64,000 bases of DNA from Patescibacteria group bacterium (GTDB lineage Bacteria; Patescibacteriota; Patescibacteriia; UBA9934): contig JAGORL010000003.1 of NCBI GenBank assembly GCA_018062825.1, positions 72,333 through 136,332 of the forward strand, read 5' to 3'. Both the position numbers and the translations under genes were made by a program. Below are positions 39,354-60,590 of the stretch, in pieces; within the stretch, counting starts at the first letter, position 1, and each line of letters starts with the position of its first letter. The notes beneath the pieces were generated by a model that searched no databases, was not told the origin of the DNA, and was given only the letters and a program-made list of their open reading frames with translations.

Positions 39354-41384
39354 ATGGCCACGGAGTCTACTGGAGACAATCGTCGTATCGTTGAGCAGAC
39401 GCTTGGCGAGATCGGAGAAGAGTGGCTCGAGACGATCGGTAAGGGGATCAATCCCATGCCGTTCCTCGCGACGCCCCACTTCTGGGGTCCGCCGGCGCGA
39501 GCAATCGCGAAGCGCGTGGCTAAGCATCCGAACACGATCCTGGGCGGCTTTTCTTTTCTGGGCGCTGTTGCGCAGGAAAAGTTGCCCTTCGGTCGGGATG
39601 TCAACCTCATCGTCGCCACGATCTTGCGCGGTATCCCGCGTCTCGCTGAGAATTCGTTGGCGGCACATGGTGTGACCGCTGACAACATCGAACAGAAGAT
39701 TGTCGAGTGGGCTGTGCAGCTCGCGAAGGAGACCCCCATGACGACGACCATCGAGTCGAAGCCGGAGGCTCCCGCGACGCCCTCGGCACCCGCGTTCGAG
39801 CTCACGCAGGAGCAGGGCGATGCCCTCGGGCTTCTGCACCGCATCCTTGAGGTTCGCCTCACGGATGCGTTCAACTTCCCGACCGAGCCGCGGCGGTACC
39901 AGGCGCTGTTGCGCCGGCTGTCGGCGAGCCCGATCGCGGTTCAGTTCCTCCCGAAGCTCAAGAAGAAGGAGATCGATGCCACCCTCGCGCACTTGCGCAC
40001 CCTCCAGACCTGGACGGCGCCCAACGTGAGCGAGGACCGGCCGACCGACGAGATGGCCGCGCAGGCGCGGATCGAGGTGGAGAAGGTGCTCTGGCGCTAC
40101 ATGCGCTTCGAGGCCGCCCTCTTCGCCCATGATCACCACCTGAACGGCGCCTATTCGATCGTCATCGGGGCGCTCGATCGTCTCGATGCGAACGTGACGG
40201 ACGAACAGCGTCGCCAGTTCCGGGAGTTTTGGGAGCGTCAGCTCCAGAACCTCTCGGAGGCCGGCATCCCCGGCATGACCCGTGACTTCGCCGAGAACTC
40301 GGCGCGAGTCATCCGGGAACAGGCGGAGCGGCTGTTCGGCTTCACGGTCGACGTCGGCCGACAGGTGTTCGAGTTTGCGGCCTGGGCGTTTGTGGGGGTC
40401 AATAGCCTCCTCATCGCCGGGATCGCGCTCTGCCTCATGGGTATCACCATGGTGGCCGAGCAGACGTTCGTGGCTCCGGCGCTTCTCGGACTCCTCTTCG
40501 TGATCCAGGTCGGAATCGCTGGGCGTCTCCTCACGAGCTCTCTGAGCACGGCGTGGAAGGCGGCCATCGTCATCGCGGCGGCAGCGCTCCTCGTGTTCCA
40601 GGTGTCGTTCGTGTCTGCGCTTCTTGCGCACCCGAGCGTTCTCCTCTTCCAGGTGGGGATCTGCCTCATGTGGATCTGGTACTTCTTCGTCGGACTGTTC
40701 GACGCGGTCGTCAACGGCTTTGCGGCCTTGACGCGCGGAGAGCGGTTCGGCCGGGATGCCGGAACGATCACGAGGGCGTGGATCGCGACGCGCAATGCCA
40801 TCATCGGCCGCACGGTCGAGGGGCAGGGCACGGCGGATGTGCCGGTACAGTTCCGGTGGTTCCGCAATTGGTCGCCGACCGTCGTCATCATCGTCTCCCT
40901 CGTGGGTGGTGTTGGTAGCGCGACGCAGGCGTTCTGGTTCGGTGCTTCGGGCGGCTTGTTCTCGGCGCTCATGTTGCTTGGCTCCGGCTGGCTCACGGGC
41001 GGTTCCGCGATCATGTACACCCGTGGCAATCGGCAGTTGACGGCAGCGGACAAGGATAACTTCTGGTCGCTCGACTTGCGGCAGAAGTACGCCAAGCGGG
41101 CGTTCCTCGTTCCCGGTGTCCTCGGCCAGGTGATGCTCGTCGTTGGCCTTGCGACCCTCTTCGTTCCTTGGTTCAAGGGCGAGGCTCTCGGTCAGCAGGT
41201 CACGGTGGCGCAGCACGTAGTGGTCGAGCCCGCAGCTAAGCAGGAAGCGACGCCCGTCATCTCGACGAGCGACGCGGCCTGCGAGAAGGTCGAGCGAATG
41301 CTCCAGGCGTCTCCGGACGTTTGCACGCTCTCGCCCGGCCTCAAGAGCTGCGCCACTGCCAAGCGGTGCGGACTGCTGAAGTAA
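39354..41384 (+). CDS. 676-aa polytopic membrane protein of the GC-rich island (soluble N-terminal ~330 aa plus ~8 TM helices)
   Basis: Strong GC3 codon bias (ctc/gcg/acg/atc/gag) unlike the flanks, GGAGA Shine-Dalgarno, and no family motif recognised. The antisense 690-aa ORF is a high-GC artefact. Confidence 0.65.
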   Translation: MATESTGDNRRIVEQTLGEIGEEWLETIGKGINPMPFLATPHFWGPPARAIAKRVAKHPNTILGGFSFLGAVAQEKLPFGRDVNLIVATILRGIPRLAENSLAAHGVTADNIEQKIVEWAVQLAKETPMTTTIESKPEAPATPSAPAFELTQEQGDALGLLHRILEVRLTDAFNFPTEPRRYQALLRRLSASPIAVQFLPKLKKKEIDATLAHLRTLQTWTAPNVSEDRPTDEMAAQARIEVEKVLWRYMRFEAALFAHDHHLNGAYSIVIGALDRLDANVTDEQRRQFREFWERQLQNLSEAGIPGMTRDFAENSARVIREQAERLFGFTVDVGRQVFEFAAWAFVGVNSLLIAGIALCLMGITMVAEQTFVAPALLGLLFVIQVGIAGRLLTSSLSTAWKAAIVIAAAALLVFQVSFVSALLAHPSVLLFQVGICLMWIWYFFVGLFDAVVNGFAALTRGERFGRDAGTITRAWIATRNAIIGRTVEGQGTADVPVQFRWFRNWSPTVVIIVSLVGGVGSATQAFWFGASGGLFSALMLLGSGWLTGGSAIMYTRGNRQLTAADKDNFWSLDLRQKYAKRAFLVPGVLGQVMLVVGLATLFVPWFKGEALGQQVTVAQHVVVEPAAKQEATPVISTSDAACEKVERMLQASPDVCTLSPGLKSCATAKRCGLLK

Positions 41385-47332: not shown

Positions 47333-47599
47333 ATGCCTTTGTGGTACCTCATTTTGCCATTTGTTATCGTGAGCCTATTTGCCCTTTTGTTTTTGTTTTT
47401 TAATATTTTTCACTTAAAGCGTTACGCGATTACTGGCTGGAAGACTGAGGCGCTCATGGGGCTTTATGTTGTCGGCTTTTTGATTATCTTTGGAATTGGC
47501 GCTGCGATTTTGAGTTCGTATGATTGGTTTTTGGTTGTTGATGCTGCTGATTTATTGCCGGCTATGTTTAACGGTGGCGCGTCTCAATACGGTTTATGA
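47333..47599 (+). CDS. Small membrane protein (3 TM helices)
   Basis: Hydrophobic 88-aa ORF; 4-bp overlap with the next gene suggests an operon. Confidence 0.4.
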   Translation: MPLWYLILPFVIVSLFALLFLFFNIFHLKRYAITGWKTEALMGLYVVGFLIIFGIGAAILSSYDWFLVVDAADLLPAMFNGGASQYGL

Positions 47600-48186
47600 T
47601 GCATCTTGATAAGCTTCCTAATAGTCAACCAGGCGAGCGCGTTGTACTTGTGCTTCGTCGCCATTGGATTGATTTACTTCGTATTTTAGCTTTTTCCGCA
47701 GTGTTAGCACTCGTGCCGGCAGCGGTTTTTGGGATTATTTTTGTCGTGCAGGTGGATGTATTGTCACATCCGGTTTATGCGCCACTTTCCATTTCACTGC
47801 TGTTTTCTTACGCATTTCTTCTTTTCACCTTAACGATTACTGAGATTACTGATTACTGGCTTGATGTGTGGATCGTGACAACGGAGCGTATTATCAATAC
47901 TGAACAGCACGGATTATTTAATCGTTTAGTTTCCGAGGTGCGTTTGGAGCAGATTCAGGATGTCACTAGTGAAACGTTGGGATTCTTGGAGACTTTCCTT
48001 ACGTATGGAGATGTATACATTCAGACTGCCGGTGAAAAAATGCGTTTTCGTTTCAAGAATGTTGATAATCCAGATGAGGTGAAGATTTCGATCATTCAGC
48101 TTTCGACTGAATGTCAGGATCACCATCACCATACGCCGCCTGCACAGCGTCAGCGACCGCCCCAGGCTCCACAACCCACAGTATAA
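47596..48186 (+). CDS. Membrane protein with bacterial PH (bPH_2/YdbT-like) domain
   Basis: Two TM helices followed by a YdbS/YdbT-like bPH fold (WIVTTERIINTEQHGLFNR..E..L..IQDV). The C-terminus is His/Pro/Gln-rich. Confidence 0.5.
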   Translation: MMHLDKLPNSQPGERVVLVLRRHWIDLLRILAFSAVLALVPAAVFGIIFVVQVDVLSHPVYAPLSISLLFSYAFLLFTLTITEITDYWLDVWIVTTERIINTEQHGLFNRLVSEVRLEQIQDVTSETLGFLETFLTYGDVYIQTAGEKMRFRFKNVDNPDEVKISIIQLSTECQDHHHHTPPAQRQRPPQAPQPTV

Positions 48187-49834: not shown

Positions 49835-49909
49835 GCGGCGGTAGTTCAGTGGTAGAACATCTCCTTGCCAAGGAGAGGGTCGAGGGTTCGAGTCCCTTCC
49901 GCCGCTCCA
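49835..49909 (+). tRNA. tRNA-Gly (GCC)
   Basis: GCGGCGGTAGTTCAGTGGTAGAAC..TCTCC-TTGCCAA-GGAGA..GGTTCGAGTCCC..CCGCCGCTCCA. Confidence 0.9.
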
Positions 49910-50040
49910 CAAAAAACCTCATATAATTTCCCCTGGCTGTGTCGTCGGCCCTAGGCTCGGACTCGTCGTACTTTCTTAGTACGCCTCGTCCTGCGCCGGG
50001 CCATCTCCTTGCCAGAGAAAATTATCTGAGGTTTTTTATT
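49910..50040. repeat. tRNA-abutting structured element, copy 2
   Basis: Starts AAAAACCT directly after the tRNA-Gly CCA and ends AGGTTTTTT. A ~25-bp terminal inverted repeat (sequence differs from copy 1) encloses a core homologous to copy 1 (shared CTGTGTCGTCG, CTCGG, CGTACTT-loop-AGTACG hairpin, CCTGCG). Confidence 0.6.
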
Positions 50041-50053
50041 TACTCATATTTCA

Positions 50054-50085
50054 AGACCCACGGAAAACCGCGGGTCTTTTGTTTT
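50054..50085 (+). terminator. Intrinsic terminator after tRNA-Gly and the element
   Basis: AGACCCACGGAAAACCGCGGGTCTTTTGTTTT; near-copy of the terminator at 37223. Confidence 0.7.
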
Positions 50086-50305
50086 ATGCTGAGGTTGGCA
50101 CTGGCGCTGCTGCTCCGGCCATCTGTTTGCGAATCCAGGAGATTCCGGAGCGATTACCCGCTCGGTACTGGTCTTTAGCGATTGAGACTACGAACTGCTG
50201 AAGTTCCCATTCGATATCTTCCGGCATGTCGTACTTGCGCATGAGGGCTTGGAATTTATCAGTGAGTTCAGTGAACCAGCGACCGGTTGTTTTTTCATCG
50301 GACAT
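50084..50305 (-). CDS. Small hypothetical protein (73 aa) translationally coupled to the upstream LTD protein gene
   Basis: ATG overlaps the stop of the 800-aa gene by 11 nt; charged soluble product, no motif recognised. Confidence 0.45.
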   Translation of the reverse strand: MSDEKTTGRWFTELTDKFQALMRKYDMPEDIEWELQQFVVSIAKDQYRAGNRSGISWIRKQMAGAAAPVPTSA

Positions 50306-52634
50306 ATGTTTCTAGGTGAGAGGTAAGTGAAGTAAGTAATTCAGGTTTTGTTTTTAAGAGCCAGTAACTCATCAGTCCCAGCGCGACTGCGCCAAGCGAT
50401 ATTCCGGCTGCAGTAACAGGAACGGCGCTATTTGTTGGCGCTATTGTGCCTAGCGGTACGGACGTTGAGGGTACGGTTTTTGTTGCAGTATCCTGCTTCA
50501 AATCCTCAAACGATCGCGGATAGACTTCATAGGCGCCAGCCTTATTTTTTACGAGCACGCCTGTTACCGTTATAGCTCCAGTAGTCAGCTTGGCGCTTGT
50601 TACATCGCTTGCAGCTTTGACGTTTACTGCGATATCGCCGGTTTTTGTTTTCAAGGTAAAGCCGGTTTTTGTCAGCAGGCTAAGATCACCAGAGATTGTG
50701 ACAAGGCGTCCGCTGCCAATGGCGGCAAGATCAGCTACTGATGCGATCATGGGAGGCGTTTCCTCGTTTGTGCCATGTAAGACAATATCCTCTGCATTGG
50801 CTACTTTTATGCGGCTATTTGTGCTTTCATGATCTACGATCCCAGTTATAGTTACACTGCTTCCTACGGGAAGCTTTGACCAATCGGCGGCATGAAAATA
50901 GATTTCAAGTCCTTCAAGATACATGACTTGTTTTGCTATTTTCATCGGCTCCATAATCACTATTCCGGTTACTGAGACTTTGTCGCCGTGGTTCATTTTT
51001 GCTATTTCAGTTGTTGTCATTTGCGGCACGCTTTCCTCATTTTTCGTTGTCACTTTGGTGCTACTAGTAGAGCTTTTTACACCTTCTTCGATTACCGGTT
51101 GCGCAATGGCGATAATCCGGCGAATACCATTGGTGGCATCGGTGGTCGTCGCAAGCTTCGACTCTTCCAATTGAGGAGCACTGGTGTCAGAATCCACTTT
51201 AGTGGTGTGAGTGTTGTTGTCTTGCGCATAGATTAGCTCGTCAGTCGAGCTTATATTTTCAATAGATGGCTCGATAGTGGGTTCTGTATTCATCTGATTT
51301 GGAGATGGAGTTCCCGTGAGCCAGCCGTTTGTGGTGTAGTTGAGGCTTTGATCTTTTTCTGGAGCGACTATTTCATCCGTTCCGTAAGTAAGAGTGTCGA
51401 TAACGTCCGCGTACTCATTTCTTATTGTTAGTTCATCGCCGTCATTATTTAGTTTTCCTGCAGGGTTCTTGATAATGAGATAGCTATTTCCTGCAATATC
51501 TCCAGAGAGTACAGTTGCTTTTCCGGAAGCATCCGTAATTGTCCAACCGTCGAGCGTGAACGTTTCCTGCGTTGTGTTATAGATCTCTATCCACTCATCG
51601 CCAGTACTTGGCGCGCTTACGATTTCGTTGATACGGATTTCGCCAGCTTTTCCAGTTCTCTTTGGTGTTACATGTGGGCTCTCTTGCTCTTCTTGTTCGA
51701 TGTCTTCAGGAGTTTCATTCTCCGGTATTTCAACGATATGTGTGGTTGATTCGACCGTCTGATTCGTGTCAGTTTGGGTAATGATATTCTGAACACTATC
51801 TGTATCCACGGCTTCTGATTCGGTCGTTTCCACGTACGGTTCCTCCTCGATTATTTCTACGAATTCATACGAGCTTTCTTCGCTTATGTTAGTAGAATTT
51901 TCCGCATCATCTGCGGTATTTTCTTCGGTAGATATTTGTGTGTCGATTTGAGGTGGTGACACTTCGTTTTGTGACGTACTTTCTGTGTTCACCGTTTGTA
52001 TCTCCGGCGTTTGCATTTCCGGTGGTATATCGTTTTCTGATTGTTGGCTTTCTTCCTCATTTTCTGTCAGCGCTGTGAATATTACGTGGCCCGGCGTTCC
52101 GAATTGTGTTTCAACTGTTAGCCCAAGGGTTGTCACGCTATTTTGCCAAGCCTTGGTGACGATATCTCGTTCAATGCTTGCAATAGGTGATGTGTTGCCA
52201 AAGTCCGGAGTGCCCGTATCTTCATACGAATCGTGCACGAGACCGTGCGGATCCGTAAGAAATACGTGGAGACTAGAGTTAGCGAGCGATAGGGCGGTTG
52301 TAACAAGGTTCGGTTCGGTGCTTAGCGTTGATTTTTCGTCGCTGCTTTTGTAGTTTGCTATGAGTAACGTCTGCTGTGGTTGAAGGATAGTGGCGTCGGG
52401 TAAGGCGATTGCGTCGCCGCCGGTTGCAGCTCCTACGAGCAGCCAACCGGAAATATCCGTAGCGGTATCTTTCGTGTTTACGAGTTCGATCCATTCATCC
52501 GCTTGGCTTTTTTCCGACCCCGCCCAATTGATTTCCGAGATGAGAATCCCGGATGATCCTTGCGCGTTCGTGGGTACAAGAGGCACAGCGGACACGAGGA
52601 TTGCGATTCCTGCGAGCCCATACAGTAGCTTCAT
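50295..52634 (-). CDS. Large surface protein with two lamin-tail-domain (LTD) modules, an acidic low-complexity region and a C-terminal TM anchor
   Basis: Signal peptide MKLLYGLAGIAILVSAVP. LTD-like blocks ILISEINW..DEWIELVNT..DISGWLL and IRINEIVS..DEWIEIYNT..LDGWTITD. Track ORF extends to 52697. Confidence 0.65.
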   Translation of the reverse strand: MKLLYGLAGIAILVSAVPLVPTNAQGSSGILISEINWAGSEKSQADEWIELVNTKDTATDISGWLLVGAATGGDAIALPDATILQPQQTLLIANYKSSDEKSTLSTEPNLVTTALSLANSSLHVFLTDPHGLVHDSYEDTGTPDFGNTSPIASIERDIVTKAWQNSVTTLGLTVETQFGTPGHVIFTALTENEEESQQSENDIPPEMQTPEIQTVNTESTSQNEVSPPQIDTQISTEENTADDAENSTNISEESSYEFVEIIEEEPYVETTESEAVDTDSVQNIITQTDTNQTVESTTHIVEIPENETPEDIEQEEQESPHVTPKRTGKAGEIRINEIVSAPSTGDEWIEIYNTTQETFTLDGWTITDASGKATVLSGDIAGNSYLIIKNPAGKLNNDGDELTIRNEYADVIDTLTYGTDEIVAPEKDQSLNYTTNGWLTGTPSPNQMNTEPTIEPSIENISSTDELIYAQDNNTHTTKVDSDTSAPQLEESKLATTTDATNGIRRIIAIAQPVIEEGVKSSTSSTKVTTKNEESVPQMTTTEIAKMNHGDKVSVTGIVIMEPMKIAKQVMYLEGLEIYFHAADWSKLPVGSSVTITGIVDHESTNSRIKVANAEDIVLHGTNEETPPMIASVADLAAIGSGRLVTISGDLSLLTKTGFTLKTKTGDIAVNVKAASDVTSAKLTTGAITVTGVLVKNKAGAYEVYPRSFEDLKQDTATKTVPSTSVPLGTIAPTNSAVPVTAAGISLGAVALGLMSYWLLKTKPELLTSLTSHLETYVR

Positions 52635-52839
52635 AGAAAGACGGTGTCTTTCTTGACGATTGAAGTGAGGTGATCGATCAAAGTCCCGGCGCCACAAACG
52701 AAAAACCCCACCAGCCTTGCCGAAGCCTCGGAAGGAAGGTGGGGAGTTCGTTTGTTATTTCTATTAAGCGTTACCTAGCTGTGATCGACAAGATATAGAT
52801 GTGGACAACTGAGAAACTTTCAATGTTTTATTGTGCTTT

Positions 52840-52924
52840 TGGTGGGCGAGGAGGGACTCGAACCCTCATGGATTGCTCCACATGTTCCTAAGACATGCGC
52901 GTATACCAATTCCGCCACTCGCCC
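52840..52924 (-). tRNA. tRNA-Leu (TAG)
   Basis: Class II tRNA GGGCGAGTGGCGGAATTGGTA..CATGT-CTTAGGA-ACATG..GGTTCGAGTCCC..CTCGCCCACCA. Confidence 0.85.
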
Positions 52925-52986: not shown

Positions 52987-54162
52987 ATGGACTACACTGT
53001 TTTTAGTTTATTTTTTACCATCTTTATTATGGTACAGGTAGTCACCACTACGGGGTATTTTCAACGGATTATGCAATCCGTTGGCGGCGTTTTACTCGGT
53101 ATAGTGTTGTTTTTTTCCTCTTTTGGAGTTTTGTTTTGGAATGAAGGCCGAGTTGATTTGTCTAAAATTGCTAAGAAAGCAGAAGTTGTTTCAGCTGGTC
53201 AGGTAGATGCCAATAAGAATGGCGTTTTTGCTTCTGTTTCTGGTGAGGTCACTACTGATAGCACCCTTGGTGATGGTTTGTATCTTGCTCCGGGCATGTA
53301 CTTAAGCATTTCCCGCATTGCCGAGATTTACGCTTGGGAAGAGGATTCAAAGTCTGAAACAACCACTAATACCGGTGGATCGGAAACCACAACTACAACG
53401 TATACCTACGAGAAGGCTTGGACTTCAGATCCTCAGGATTCCTCAGAGTTCCAGGAGGTTACTGGTCATGAGAATCAAGTTCAAACGCAGACTGAAACTT
53501 CACTACAGACTGAATCTATCAATGTTGGCGCCTGGGCTGTTGATGGACGTTCTGTTGATCTGCCTGGAGGTGAGCAGCTCACGCTTAACGAGGAGCGCGT
53601 TACACTTCCGGCTGGCGCCCAGATTTCCGGCGGTTACGTTTACTTAAATGGTGCAGATCCTGCGCTTCCTGACATTGGTGATGAGCGAGTGAAATATACG
53701 GCGCTTATGCCGGGTTTTGATGGCACAATCTTTGGTGAGGTTGATGGGGCAAATGGTCAGATTGCACGTTATACGGATAAGAACGGCAATGCTTTTTACC
53801 GTATCTTTGAAGGTGGTCGTGATGAGGCGCTTGCTACCATGCATGGCGAGTATGTTATGGCCTTGTGGATCTTCCGCTTTGTTGGTTTCTTGATGATGTG
53901 GATCGGCTTGTCCATGGTTTTTGGTCCAATATCAGCTCTTCTTGATATCTTGCCAATTTTTGGTCGGTTATCACGTACGCTTATTGGCGGTGTTACTTTC
54001 TTGATTGCGGGGCTCTTGTCTATCGTGACGATCCTCGTATCCATGATCTTGCATTCACTTGTTGCACTTATCATCGCTGTACTTCTTATAATCGGTGGCA
54101 TTATCGGTGGTTTATACTGGTATAAGAACAATAAAATGCAGCCAGTTGTTACTAGCGCTTAG
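52987..54162 (+). CDS. Membrane protein (N-terminal TM, ~270-aa exposed region, C-terminal 3-4 TM; possibly TMEM43/DUF1625-like)
   Basis: Topology from hydrophobicity only; family assignment is weak. Confidence 0.35.
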   Translation: MDYTVFSLFFTIFIMVQVVTTTGYFQRIMQSVGGVLLGIVLFFSSFGVLFWNEGRVDLSKIAKKAEVVSAGQVDANKNGVFASVSGEVTTDSTLGDGLYLAPGMYLSISRIAEIYAWEEDSKSETTTNTGGSETTTTTYTYEKAWTSDPQDSSEFQEVTGHENQVQTQTETSLQTESINVGAWAVDGRSVDLPGGEQLTLNEERVTLPAGAQISGGYVYLNGADPALPDIGDERVKYTALMPGFDGTIFGEVDGANGQIARYTDKNGNAFYRIFEGGRDEALATMHGEYVMALWIFRFVGFLMMWIGLSMVFGPISALLDILPIFGRLSRTLIGGVTFLIAGLLSIVTILVSMILHSLVALIIAVLLIIGGIIGGLYWYKNNKMQPVVTSA

Positions 54163-57250: not shown

Positions 57251-57408
57251 TCCGCCGCACTGTTCGTGAACAAAAGTTCACTTCAGAAGAGCTTTTTGGA
57301 CGAAAGTCCAGCGCGCCCTTCTGAACGTTTACAACTAAATATTCTACGAAGAAAAAGCAAACGCACTGATATCATGACCAAAAGGTCATGCGTACTCAGT
57401 GAATGGAG

Positions 57409-60418
<3,010 letters not shown>

Positions 60419-60480
60419 TCCATTCACTGAGTGCGTTAAATCGCACGCGTTTGCTAAACGAATAAAAAAACATTTCATTG

Positions 60481-60590
60481 TCTTGGTGGCATTTCCAGCG
60501 GGGACACACCCGTTCCCTTCCCGAACACGGAAGTTAAGCCCGTTTGGGCCGATGGTAGCCAAGTGTGGCGAGAGTAGGTGGCCGCCAGGA
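60481..60590 (+). rRNA. rrf: 5S ribosomal RNA
   Basis: TCTTGGTGGC..CCGAACACGGAAGTTAAGCCCG..GATGGTAGC..GAGAGTAGGTGGCCGCCAGGA; ends pair. Confidence 0.9.

Follow-up and report, generated by a model that had tools for sequence, protein, structure and literature searches.

What do the two overlapping genes that lie between a tRNA-Gly and a tRNA-Leu gene in the genome of a Patescibacteria group bacterium encode, and what might their products do together? The genes are found on contig JAGORL010000003.1 of assembly GCA_018062825.1, in a 64,000-nucleotide (nt) stretch (positions 72,333 to 136,332) that we analyzed as a whole and refer to as the window; coordinates are those of the window, and all features of the pair are on its minus strand. 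A first-pass annotation, made from the sequence alone, had described the upstream gene as encoding an 800-residue surface protein with a C-terminal anchor and the downstream gene as a 73-residue open reading frame (ORF). Our analyses showed that the large and the small gene form a real pair with strict linkage, and they support the large protein as a Sec-exported, C-terminally anchored protein with two lamin-tail domains (LTDs). We hold this structural and organizational description of the pair with high confidence and give a probability of roughly 40% to the functional reading that we favor overall, in which the large protein would be a surface receptor or tether and the small protein its cytoplasmic partner.

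The large ORF spans 50295 to 52697 and encodes the annotated 800 residues when begun at TTG. The ATG at 52634, which was the end coordinate of the first-pass annotation, gives a 779-residue form (50295 to 52634, stop codon included), and the same ATG was chosen by independent gene calls for relatives with 99% and 61% identity. The 779-residue form consists of a signal peptide, LTD1, an acidic spacer, LTD2, a disordered linker, the barrels OB1 and OB2 described below, a short stalk, a membrane helix and a short tail. Residues 1 to 26 (52557 to 52634) form a canonical signal peptide with its cleavage site (MKLLYGLAGIAILVSAVPLVPTNA followed by QG), in which hydrophobic residues 1 to 24 lead to cleavage between TNA and QG, and all family members begin with the same kind of signal peptide. 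The mature protein has an isoelectric point (pI) of 4.26 and no cysteines. The window holds one copy of the gene, and 186 homologs of the protein were found in Patescibacteria.

At the other end of the protein, hydropathy and a helix in the structural model bear out the proposed anchor as a Gly/Ala/Ser-rich transmembrane helix at residues ∼736 to 762 (50349 to 50429). The family motif of this helix lies around GGGLL..S.GALGYW..R, and the W-(F/Y)-x-R boundary together with the Gly/Ala/Ser-rich membrane helix is the conserved element of the C-terminal end. The helix is followed by a 17-residue cytoplasmic tail, residues 763 to 779 (KPELLTSLTSHLETYVR; 50298 to 50348), which is predicted to be helical. 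A 100-nt block that spans the tail (50265 to 50364) has 95% DNA identity to L001, which is the closest distinct relative. The relative P0002 has exactly the same last 23 residues (WLLKTKPELLTSLTSHLETYVR); tails in other relatives are 7 to 25 residues long and poorly conserved. No LPXTG-like motif of the sortase-anchored class is present in the sequence ahead of the helix (...VPLGTIAPTNSAVPVTAAG...), and no GG of the GlyGly-CTERM type precedes it (...PVTAAGISLGAVALGLMSYWLLKTK). The sequence P-W-I-G-G-G-L-L is present in many relatives, and the relatives match no NCBIfam model of a C-terminal sorting signal.

The Pfam lamin-tail family PF00932 matched the large protein twice (E = 4.8e-28 and 98.1 bits for the whole protein). 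Scanned alone, LTD1 (residues 24 to 138; 52221 to 52565) scored 53.1 bits (E = 4.7e-14) and LTD2 (residues 329 to 418; 51381 to 51650) scored 58.5 bits (E = 1e-15). Both domains separately pass the gathering cut-off of 34.3 bits, and the claim of two LTDs, for which the first-pass annotation had named the lack of such a match as refutation, survived. LTD1 is the module furthest from the membrane. No other folded part is as well conserved across the family, and LTD1 carries the strongest family motif (consensus SEINWAGS..StADEWiEL.N ... LIANY). Between the two LTDs, a compositionally biased spacer of 135 residues (191 to 325; 51660 to 52064) contains 39 D/E against 1 K/R (E 23%, T 14%, S 10% and Q 9%), and its entropy is below that of the rest of the protein; this is the long acidic low-complexity region of the first-pass annotation. 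The spacer has no Pfam match, and no tandem repeats were found in it. It is acidic in all 50 relatives analyzed, with a median of 24% D/E and a net charge of −30, while only 24% of its residues are identical between the window protein and L001, a pattern in which selection retains composition and not sequence. The folded modules are acidic too, with median net charges across relatives of −13 for LTD1, −11 for LTD2 and −3 for each of the two OB barrels. A second linker, residues 441 to 535 (51030 to 51314), has no Pfam match and is predicted to be disordered (predicted local distance difference test [pLDDT] of 45 to 68); this 95-residue linker and the acidic spacer are the only stretches of the large protein without an assignment.

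An AlphaFold2 model of residues 441 to 779, built from a 50-sequence alignment, revealed a feature that had been overlooked, namely two consecutive β-barrels at residues ∼535 to 715 with pLDDT values above 90. The first, OB1 (residues 541 to 625; 50760 to 51014), was assigned by its pLDDT above 90, its β-barrel strand pattern, Foldseek and conservation, and the second, OB2 (residues 633 to 716; 50487 to 50738), by its pLDDT above 90, Foldseek and weak sequence matches to PF01336 and DUF5689. In Foldseek searches of the PDB, the barrels matched tandem-OB nucleic acid binders with a probability of 1.0 and E values of 1e-4 to 1e-3, among them the DNA-binding domains of RPA70, Teb1 AB, HIN-200 with double-stranded DNA and the anticodon-binding OB domains of LysRS and AspRS. 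The five-stranded closed β-barrel of the OB-fold structural class is thus predicted twice in the model. Many relatives also carry precomputed matches to PF01336, DUF5689 (PF18942) or BOF (PF04076). The conserved motifs of OB1 are PGtfGkQ, lYf, AdWP and R.Ki, and the barrel keeps an aromatic and basic set (F, K, Y, W, R and K) that hints at a ligand site, possibly one for nucleic acid.

Comparison with L001, to which the large protein is 61% identical, gave a ratio of nonsynonymous to synonymous substitution rates (dN/dS) of 0.27 for the whole protein and of 0.19 for LTD1, 0.10 for LTD2 and 0.12 for the OB pair. These values indicate that the folded domains are under purifying selection, and the spacers diverge quickly but remain acidic. 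Divergence is uneven along the gene: dS is 0.09 over the signal-peptide codons and 0.6 to 2.4 over the rest of the gene, highest in the center, and 98% identity with L001 extends over the 100 noncoding nt upstream of the gene, a stretch that contains the terminator hairpin of tRNA-Leu (region 52553 to 52752). Such a mosaic points to recombination or to diversification of the protein's exposed part, and the near-identical leader region would reflect either a recombination breakpoint or nucleotide-level constraint on the leader.

The small gene (50084 to 50305) starts within the end of the large gene, and the annotated 11-nt overlap (ATGTCCGATGA; 50295 to 50305) is seen in the sequence. The first-pass annotation had held that the partnership would fall if the small ORF were not conserved with the large gene in relatives. 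In a search that began from the small protein (19 closer sequences as query, one genome per GTDB species), a large-family gene lay directly upstream of the small gene in all 26 reference-genome loci. In 21 of the 26 it ended no more than 126 nt upstream on the same strand, and in the remaining 5 its end lay ∼150 to 300 nt upstream. Look-ups that began from large proteins of 31 to 36% identity found a gene of 68 to 79 residues following in six of six cases (L006 to L009, L036 and L037), each of which is recognized by the small-family hidden Markov model (HMM), and the close relatives L001 and L002 have the same two-gene arrangement. The small ORF is thus conserved with the large gene in every one of these sets, and such strict linkage argues that the two genes form a functional unit. 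Only in the three most distant relatives examined, whose layout is LTD-PKD-LTD-OB and whose anchors are plain hydrophobic stretches, was no small-family gene found anywhere in the locus; these partnerless PKD variants also lack the W-(F/Y)-x-R motif of the membrane helix. Spacing between the two genes ranges from −11 to about +300 nt across relatives (+10, +4, +1, +1, +4, −4 and +107 nt where genes are called in other loci), and the gap is no more than 25 nt in 15 of the 26 reference loci. Spacing is mostly short, and therefore tight coexpression is the rule. The overlap itself suggests that the two genes are translationally coupled here, as a local feature.

The 73-residue product of the small gene is identical to the protein that NCBI names KBC55_03645. 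It is 96% identical to its counterpart in L001 (dS 0.79, dN 0.034, dN/dS 0.043), and this low ratio, together with 96% identity where the large protein has 61%, marks the small ORF as a real gene. When 1.84 billion representative proteins were searched exhaustively with HMMER, 79 family members were recovered, nearly all stand-alone proteins of 58 to 91 residues with the consensus W-Y..L......L.....(P)ED....(R/K).F....A(K/R)EQY.AGN(R/K)SGI.W.R. G50 is invariant, W10, Q46, G54 and W57 are nearly so, and the conserved patch comprises Q46, Y47, G50, N51, S53, G54, I55, W57 and R59. Because it has neither a signal peptide nor a membrane segment, the protein is cytoplasmic, and AlphaFold2 modeled it as a three-helix bundle (pLDDT 79). 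It has no match in Pfam, NCBIfam or PHROGs and no relative in viral contigs, and nothing significant was found in the PDB by sequence profile or by fold, where it matches generic helical bundles only. The one weak PADLOC match, to PbeC (E = 0.0076), was not reproduced by relatives. An identity as DUF5363 was rejected, as only 3 of 75 members match that family, and these match nothing but the N-terminal half of DUF5363; we found no literature on DUF5363. A few members depart from the stand-alone form: P0133 and P0151 have a C-terminal CPxC...C extension, P0196 has an N-terminal CxxC...CxxC extension, and in P0164 the domain is duplicated in tandem. The small proteins thus make up a clean new family with an obvious candidate partner.

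How the two products might work can be proposed from these features. The genes would form a two-gene operon in the core genome of Uhrbacteria-like Patescibacteria (related genomes are labelled Uhrbacteria). The first product would be a Sec-exported type I membrane protein with the OB pair just outside the membrane helix and LTD1 distal. Because the LTD, double-OB and anchor layout is that of the ExeM/NucH/Xds proteins without their nuclease, this product may be a noncatalytic surface receptor or tether that holds an extracellular polymer, most likely nucleic acid, possibly via bridging divalent cations, with the acidic spacers setting the distance of the held polymer from the cell. The second product would be made together with the first; in this genome, ribosomes probably terminate and reinitiate across the overlap of 11 nt. 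On the cytoplasmic side of the membrane, it would serve as an adaptor or stabilizer that acts on the first product at its transmembrane or juxtamembrane end. Nucleic acid as the ligand is a tentative assignment, to which we would not give even odds, and DNA capture is a plausible but putative role. Roles in DNA uptake or nucleotide scavenging, as raised by the first-pass annotation, are likewise conjectural. Direct physical contact of the two proteins is possible but somewhat unlikely. A simple docking of the small protein on the tail is weakened as a model, since the tails are only 7 to 25 residues long and variable.

Several observations weigh against this proposal. In every relative, the ectodomain is acidic throughout, which is unusual for a direct DNA binder; with every module net acidic, direct binding of DNA would need cation bridging. 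The sequence matches of the large protein to OB families are sub-threshold, at 13.9 to 14.9 bits (E = 0.026 to 0.055) for PF01336, whose gathering score is 27 bits, and E = 0.01 for DUF5689, and the nearest sequence relative of the family profile in the PDB is YgiW, a periplasmic OB protein (E = 0.029). The LTD alone is no evidence of DNA binding, since ExeM still degrades DNA without it (PMC6085458). The 30 largest ORFs of the window include no comEC, comEA or pilus gene, and none was found in the flanks of relatives where these are annotated; no nuclease gene was found near the pair here or in those flanks. Moreover, Southlakia epibionticum, the one genetically studied Patescibacterium, can grow without comEC (PMC10633639). 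As to the partnership, the 11-nt overlap is shared with L001 and is not kept in more distant relatives, the small protein is highly conserved where the tails of the large proteins are poorly so, and the fold of the small protein matches generic helical bundles alone.

Patescibacteria rely either on other cells or on polymers in their environment, and their surface proteins are for the most part uncharacterized; the module described here, widespread and part of the core genome in one large lineage, is a surface protein with the domain logic of extracellular nucleases minus catalysis. Should DNA be what it captures, the protein would become a candidate receptor at the cell surface for competence or for foraging on DNA. 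A bolder version, which we regard as quite speculative and improbable, is a Patescibacteria-specific transmembrane device in which the nuclease-less arm catches DNA or another polymer and the Gly-rich helix and the three-helix protein pass a signal or substrate inward. Such a device would be a replacement for ComEA or a sensor of extracellular polymers with a new kind of cytoplasmic effector.

Among the alternatives, the one that survives best takes the large protein as an adhesin for an episymbiotic lifestyle. The LTD and OB barrels would bind a polymer of the host cell or its matrix, the acidic spacers would serve as a stalk, and the small protein would be an accessory on the cytoplasmic side. 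The distal LTD has an Ig-like fold, and binding of oligosaccharides is the other classic function of OB folds. The mosaic between close relatives described above (dS of 0.09 in the signal-peptide codons against up to 2.4 in the center) is typical of exposed, fast-evolving surface proteins, PKD domains, which are Ig-like, are inserted in more distant relatives, and an acidic ectodomain suits cationic or metal-bridged surfaces. In addition, envelope proteins are prominent among the genes essential to epibiotic growth in Saccharibacteria (PMC10633639). However, Pfam and NCBIfam scans gave no lectin, cadherin or LPXTG/sortase signal, the nearest parallel of the domain set is in nucleases, and the lineage has no known host. 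We consider the adhesin explanation possible though unlikely; if the module does bind a host, it would be a candidate attachment factor.

A less probable alternative holds that the large protein has no specific macromolecular ligand and is an envelope structural or spacer protein that organizes or hydrates the surface, binds cations or spaces an S-layer or wall. The retention of spacer composition without sequence (a median of 24% D/E and a net charge of −30 in 50 relatives), the position in the core genome, the single copy in the window, the lack of cysteines and the pI of 4.26 would all suit such a role. Against it, four folded domains are under clear purifying selection, and the strongly conserved surface motif of LTD1 and the aromatic and basic set of OB1 argue for specific binding, which makes a purely structural function improbable in our view.

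Equally improbable is that the small protein is no physical partner at all, being instead a small regulator or housekeeping factor on a shared transcript, whose linkage would reflect coregulation or frozen gene order. Its conservation far exceeds that of the cytoplasmic portion of the large protein, its conserved patch consists of basic and polar residues at a junction that resembles a helix-turn-helix, the Cys-motif extensions of a few members are zinc ribbon-like, and the surrounding gene order is conserved in any case. Yet fold searches gave no helix-turn-helix or other DNA-binding match, and within the 36 related loci to which our survey was limited the small family occurs only beside large-family genes. 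Autoregulators usually stand in front of an operon, but the small gene lies downstream, often within 1 to 25 nt.

The weakest alternative, that the pair is accessory or mobile cargo inserted between two tRNA genes, as the first-pass annotation had implied in calling this a typical accessory-gene location, could draw on the tRNA-Gly and tRNA-Leu flanks and the long hairpin beside tRNA-Gly, but is effectively refuted by synteny with core genes conserved over many genomes. Also against it are the normal GC content, the absence of an integrase among the ORFs of the 47- to 56-kb neighborhood (direct repeats were not searched for) and the lack of a phage or defense signal, with no PHROGs or viral-contig match and only the weak, unreplicated PbeC match of PADLOC. 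Specifically, RuvB is a neighbor in 17 of the 36 related loci, a bacterial PH-domain (bPH) protein in 16, a serine hydrolase in 16 and a NUDIX gene in 9, and because these neighbors (RuvB, bPH and the hydrolase) are conserved we regard the site as a core locus and not an accessory island. Local GC content is 0.46 to 0.47, ordinary against 0.43 to 0.52 over most of the window. Both flanking tRNA genes were located where they had been annotated, tRNA-Gly at 49835 to 49909 (plus strand) and tRNA-Leu at 52840 to 52924 (minus strand).

A hairpin of ∼125 nt lies directly after tRNA-Gly (49911 to 50090) and is presumably the element that had been annotated with that gene. Folding of the plus strand gave a minimum free energy of −73.6 kcal/mol (z = −7.1), and the minus strand gave −91.6 kcal/mol (z = −11.7). 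It is followed on the plus strand by a GC hairpin and U-run that resemble a terminator for the tRNA-Gly transcript. On the tRNA-Leu side, a TMEM43/LUMA homolog (52987 to 54162, plus strand; Pfam E = 1.1e-47) is divergent from the LTD gene. Eukaryotic TMEM43 binds lamins; an echo of the TMEM43-lamin pairing was rejected as probable coincidence, the adjacency occurring in just 2 of the 36 related loci. A membrane protein of 84 to 88 residues and the bPH protein (47333 to 48186, plus strand) come after RuvB, an order kept in 16 of the 36 loci, and so make up a further conserved pair of small genes. Several of the related loci that carry a Patescibacteria-type pair (L011, L012, L018, L020-L022, L024, L025, L028 and L031-L034) are titled "uncultured Gammaproteobacteria"; most of them also show RuvB, bPH or serine hydrolase synteny, and the taxonomy of these records looks wrong.

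The remainder of the window carries dnaA, dnaN, trigger factor, a class A penicillin-binding protein and 23S and 5S rRNA genes. The 23S rRNA (3021 nt, against a model of 2925 nt) and the 5S rRNA lie at 57404 to 60590, no 16S rRNA was found by Rfam anywhere in the window, and the rRNA operon appears unlinked. Between ∼38000 and 42000, GC content rises to 0.59 to 0.61 against 0.43 to 0.52 elsewhere, with long ORFs on both strands; this island, which may have been acquired horizontally, includes a 676-residue multipass membrane ORF without a Pfam match (39354 to 41384, plus strand). Most window genes lack a Shine-Dalgarno sequence (starts of ∼20 genes), and its absence was thus unusable as evidence of coupling between the large and small genes. 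Several genes have −10-like boxes (TATACT, TAGAAT and TAGATG) 15 to 25 nt ahead of the ATG, and their leaders may therefore be very short.

Public annotation already labels large-family proteins as "lamin tail domain-containing". What appears to be new, in that we did not find it described, is the nuclease-less LTD-LTD-OB-OB-anchor design of the family, the small three-helix family and their obligate pairing; in the literature, we found no paper that ties lamin-tail domains functionally to Patescibacteria. Of the known systems, the Ig-fold of the eukaryotic lamin tail is the same PF00932 domain in an unrelated cellular context. YgiW/YdeI (BOF) and DUF5689 are extracytoplasmic OB barrels, as are the barrels predicted here, but YgiW/YdeI are single-domain stress proteins, and we know of no established ligand for the BOF family. 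ComEA of competent monoderm bacteria, as a membrane-anchored, noncatalytic protein that holds DNA, might be a functional analog without homology. ComEA binds DNA via helix-hairpin-helix motifs and has an N-terminal anchor, and no helix-hairpin-helix family was found in the window protein by a Pfam scan at E values up to 0.1.

Closer parallels combine an LTD with a nuclease. In Izemoplasmatales, LTD-plus-nuclease proteins are encoded in loci for DNA degradation, and an LTD is also present in a Haloferax protein that is described as one of extracellular DNA metabolism (PMC8289736, PMC5118699). The 1,049-residue Izemoplasmatales protein, Hvo_1477 of Haloferax and the window protein are all extracellular or membrane-associated LTD proteins, the first two of which are tied to extracellular DNA metabolism. 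However, these two carry nuclease domains and the window protein has none, and the locus of the Izemoplasmatales protein has nucleases and putative nucleoside transporters, whereas the window locus has neither.

The closest described layout is that of ExeM, NucH and Xds, in which the signal peptide is followed by an LTD, a YhcR-like region that contains two OB folds, an EEP nuclease and, at the C terminus, an anchor. In ExeM, DNA degradation requires the OB region, and the LTD contributes but is dispensable (PMC6085458). The NCBIfam models of these proteins (NF033680 and NF033681, covering Shewanella ExeM and Vibrio Xds) have cut-offs of 1300 and 300 bits, respectively. The window protein has no match to them at E values up to 0.1, and the best score among its relatives is 57.7 bits. 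The matches of the relatives are local and sub-threshold, to the LTD part of ExeM for P0003 (5.8e-16) and P0039 (2.6e-9) and to the OB part of ExeM/NucH for P0117 (5.8e-7); they cover LTD or OB parts only and never the nuclease. None of the 120 relatives listed has a nuclease Pfam domain; those carry the LTD and sometimes PF01336, DUF5689, BOF or PKD. A dedicated small cytoplasmic partner gene is present here (its presence in ExeM was not checked). The window protein shares with ExeM/NucH/Xds the signal peptide, the LTD, the pair of OB folds and the C-terminal helix, but it differs from them in lacking, by Pfam and NCBIfam, an EEP or other nuclease domain, in lacking the Gly-Gly of the GlyGly-CTERM signal and in having two LTDs that are separated by an acidic spacer.

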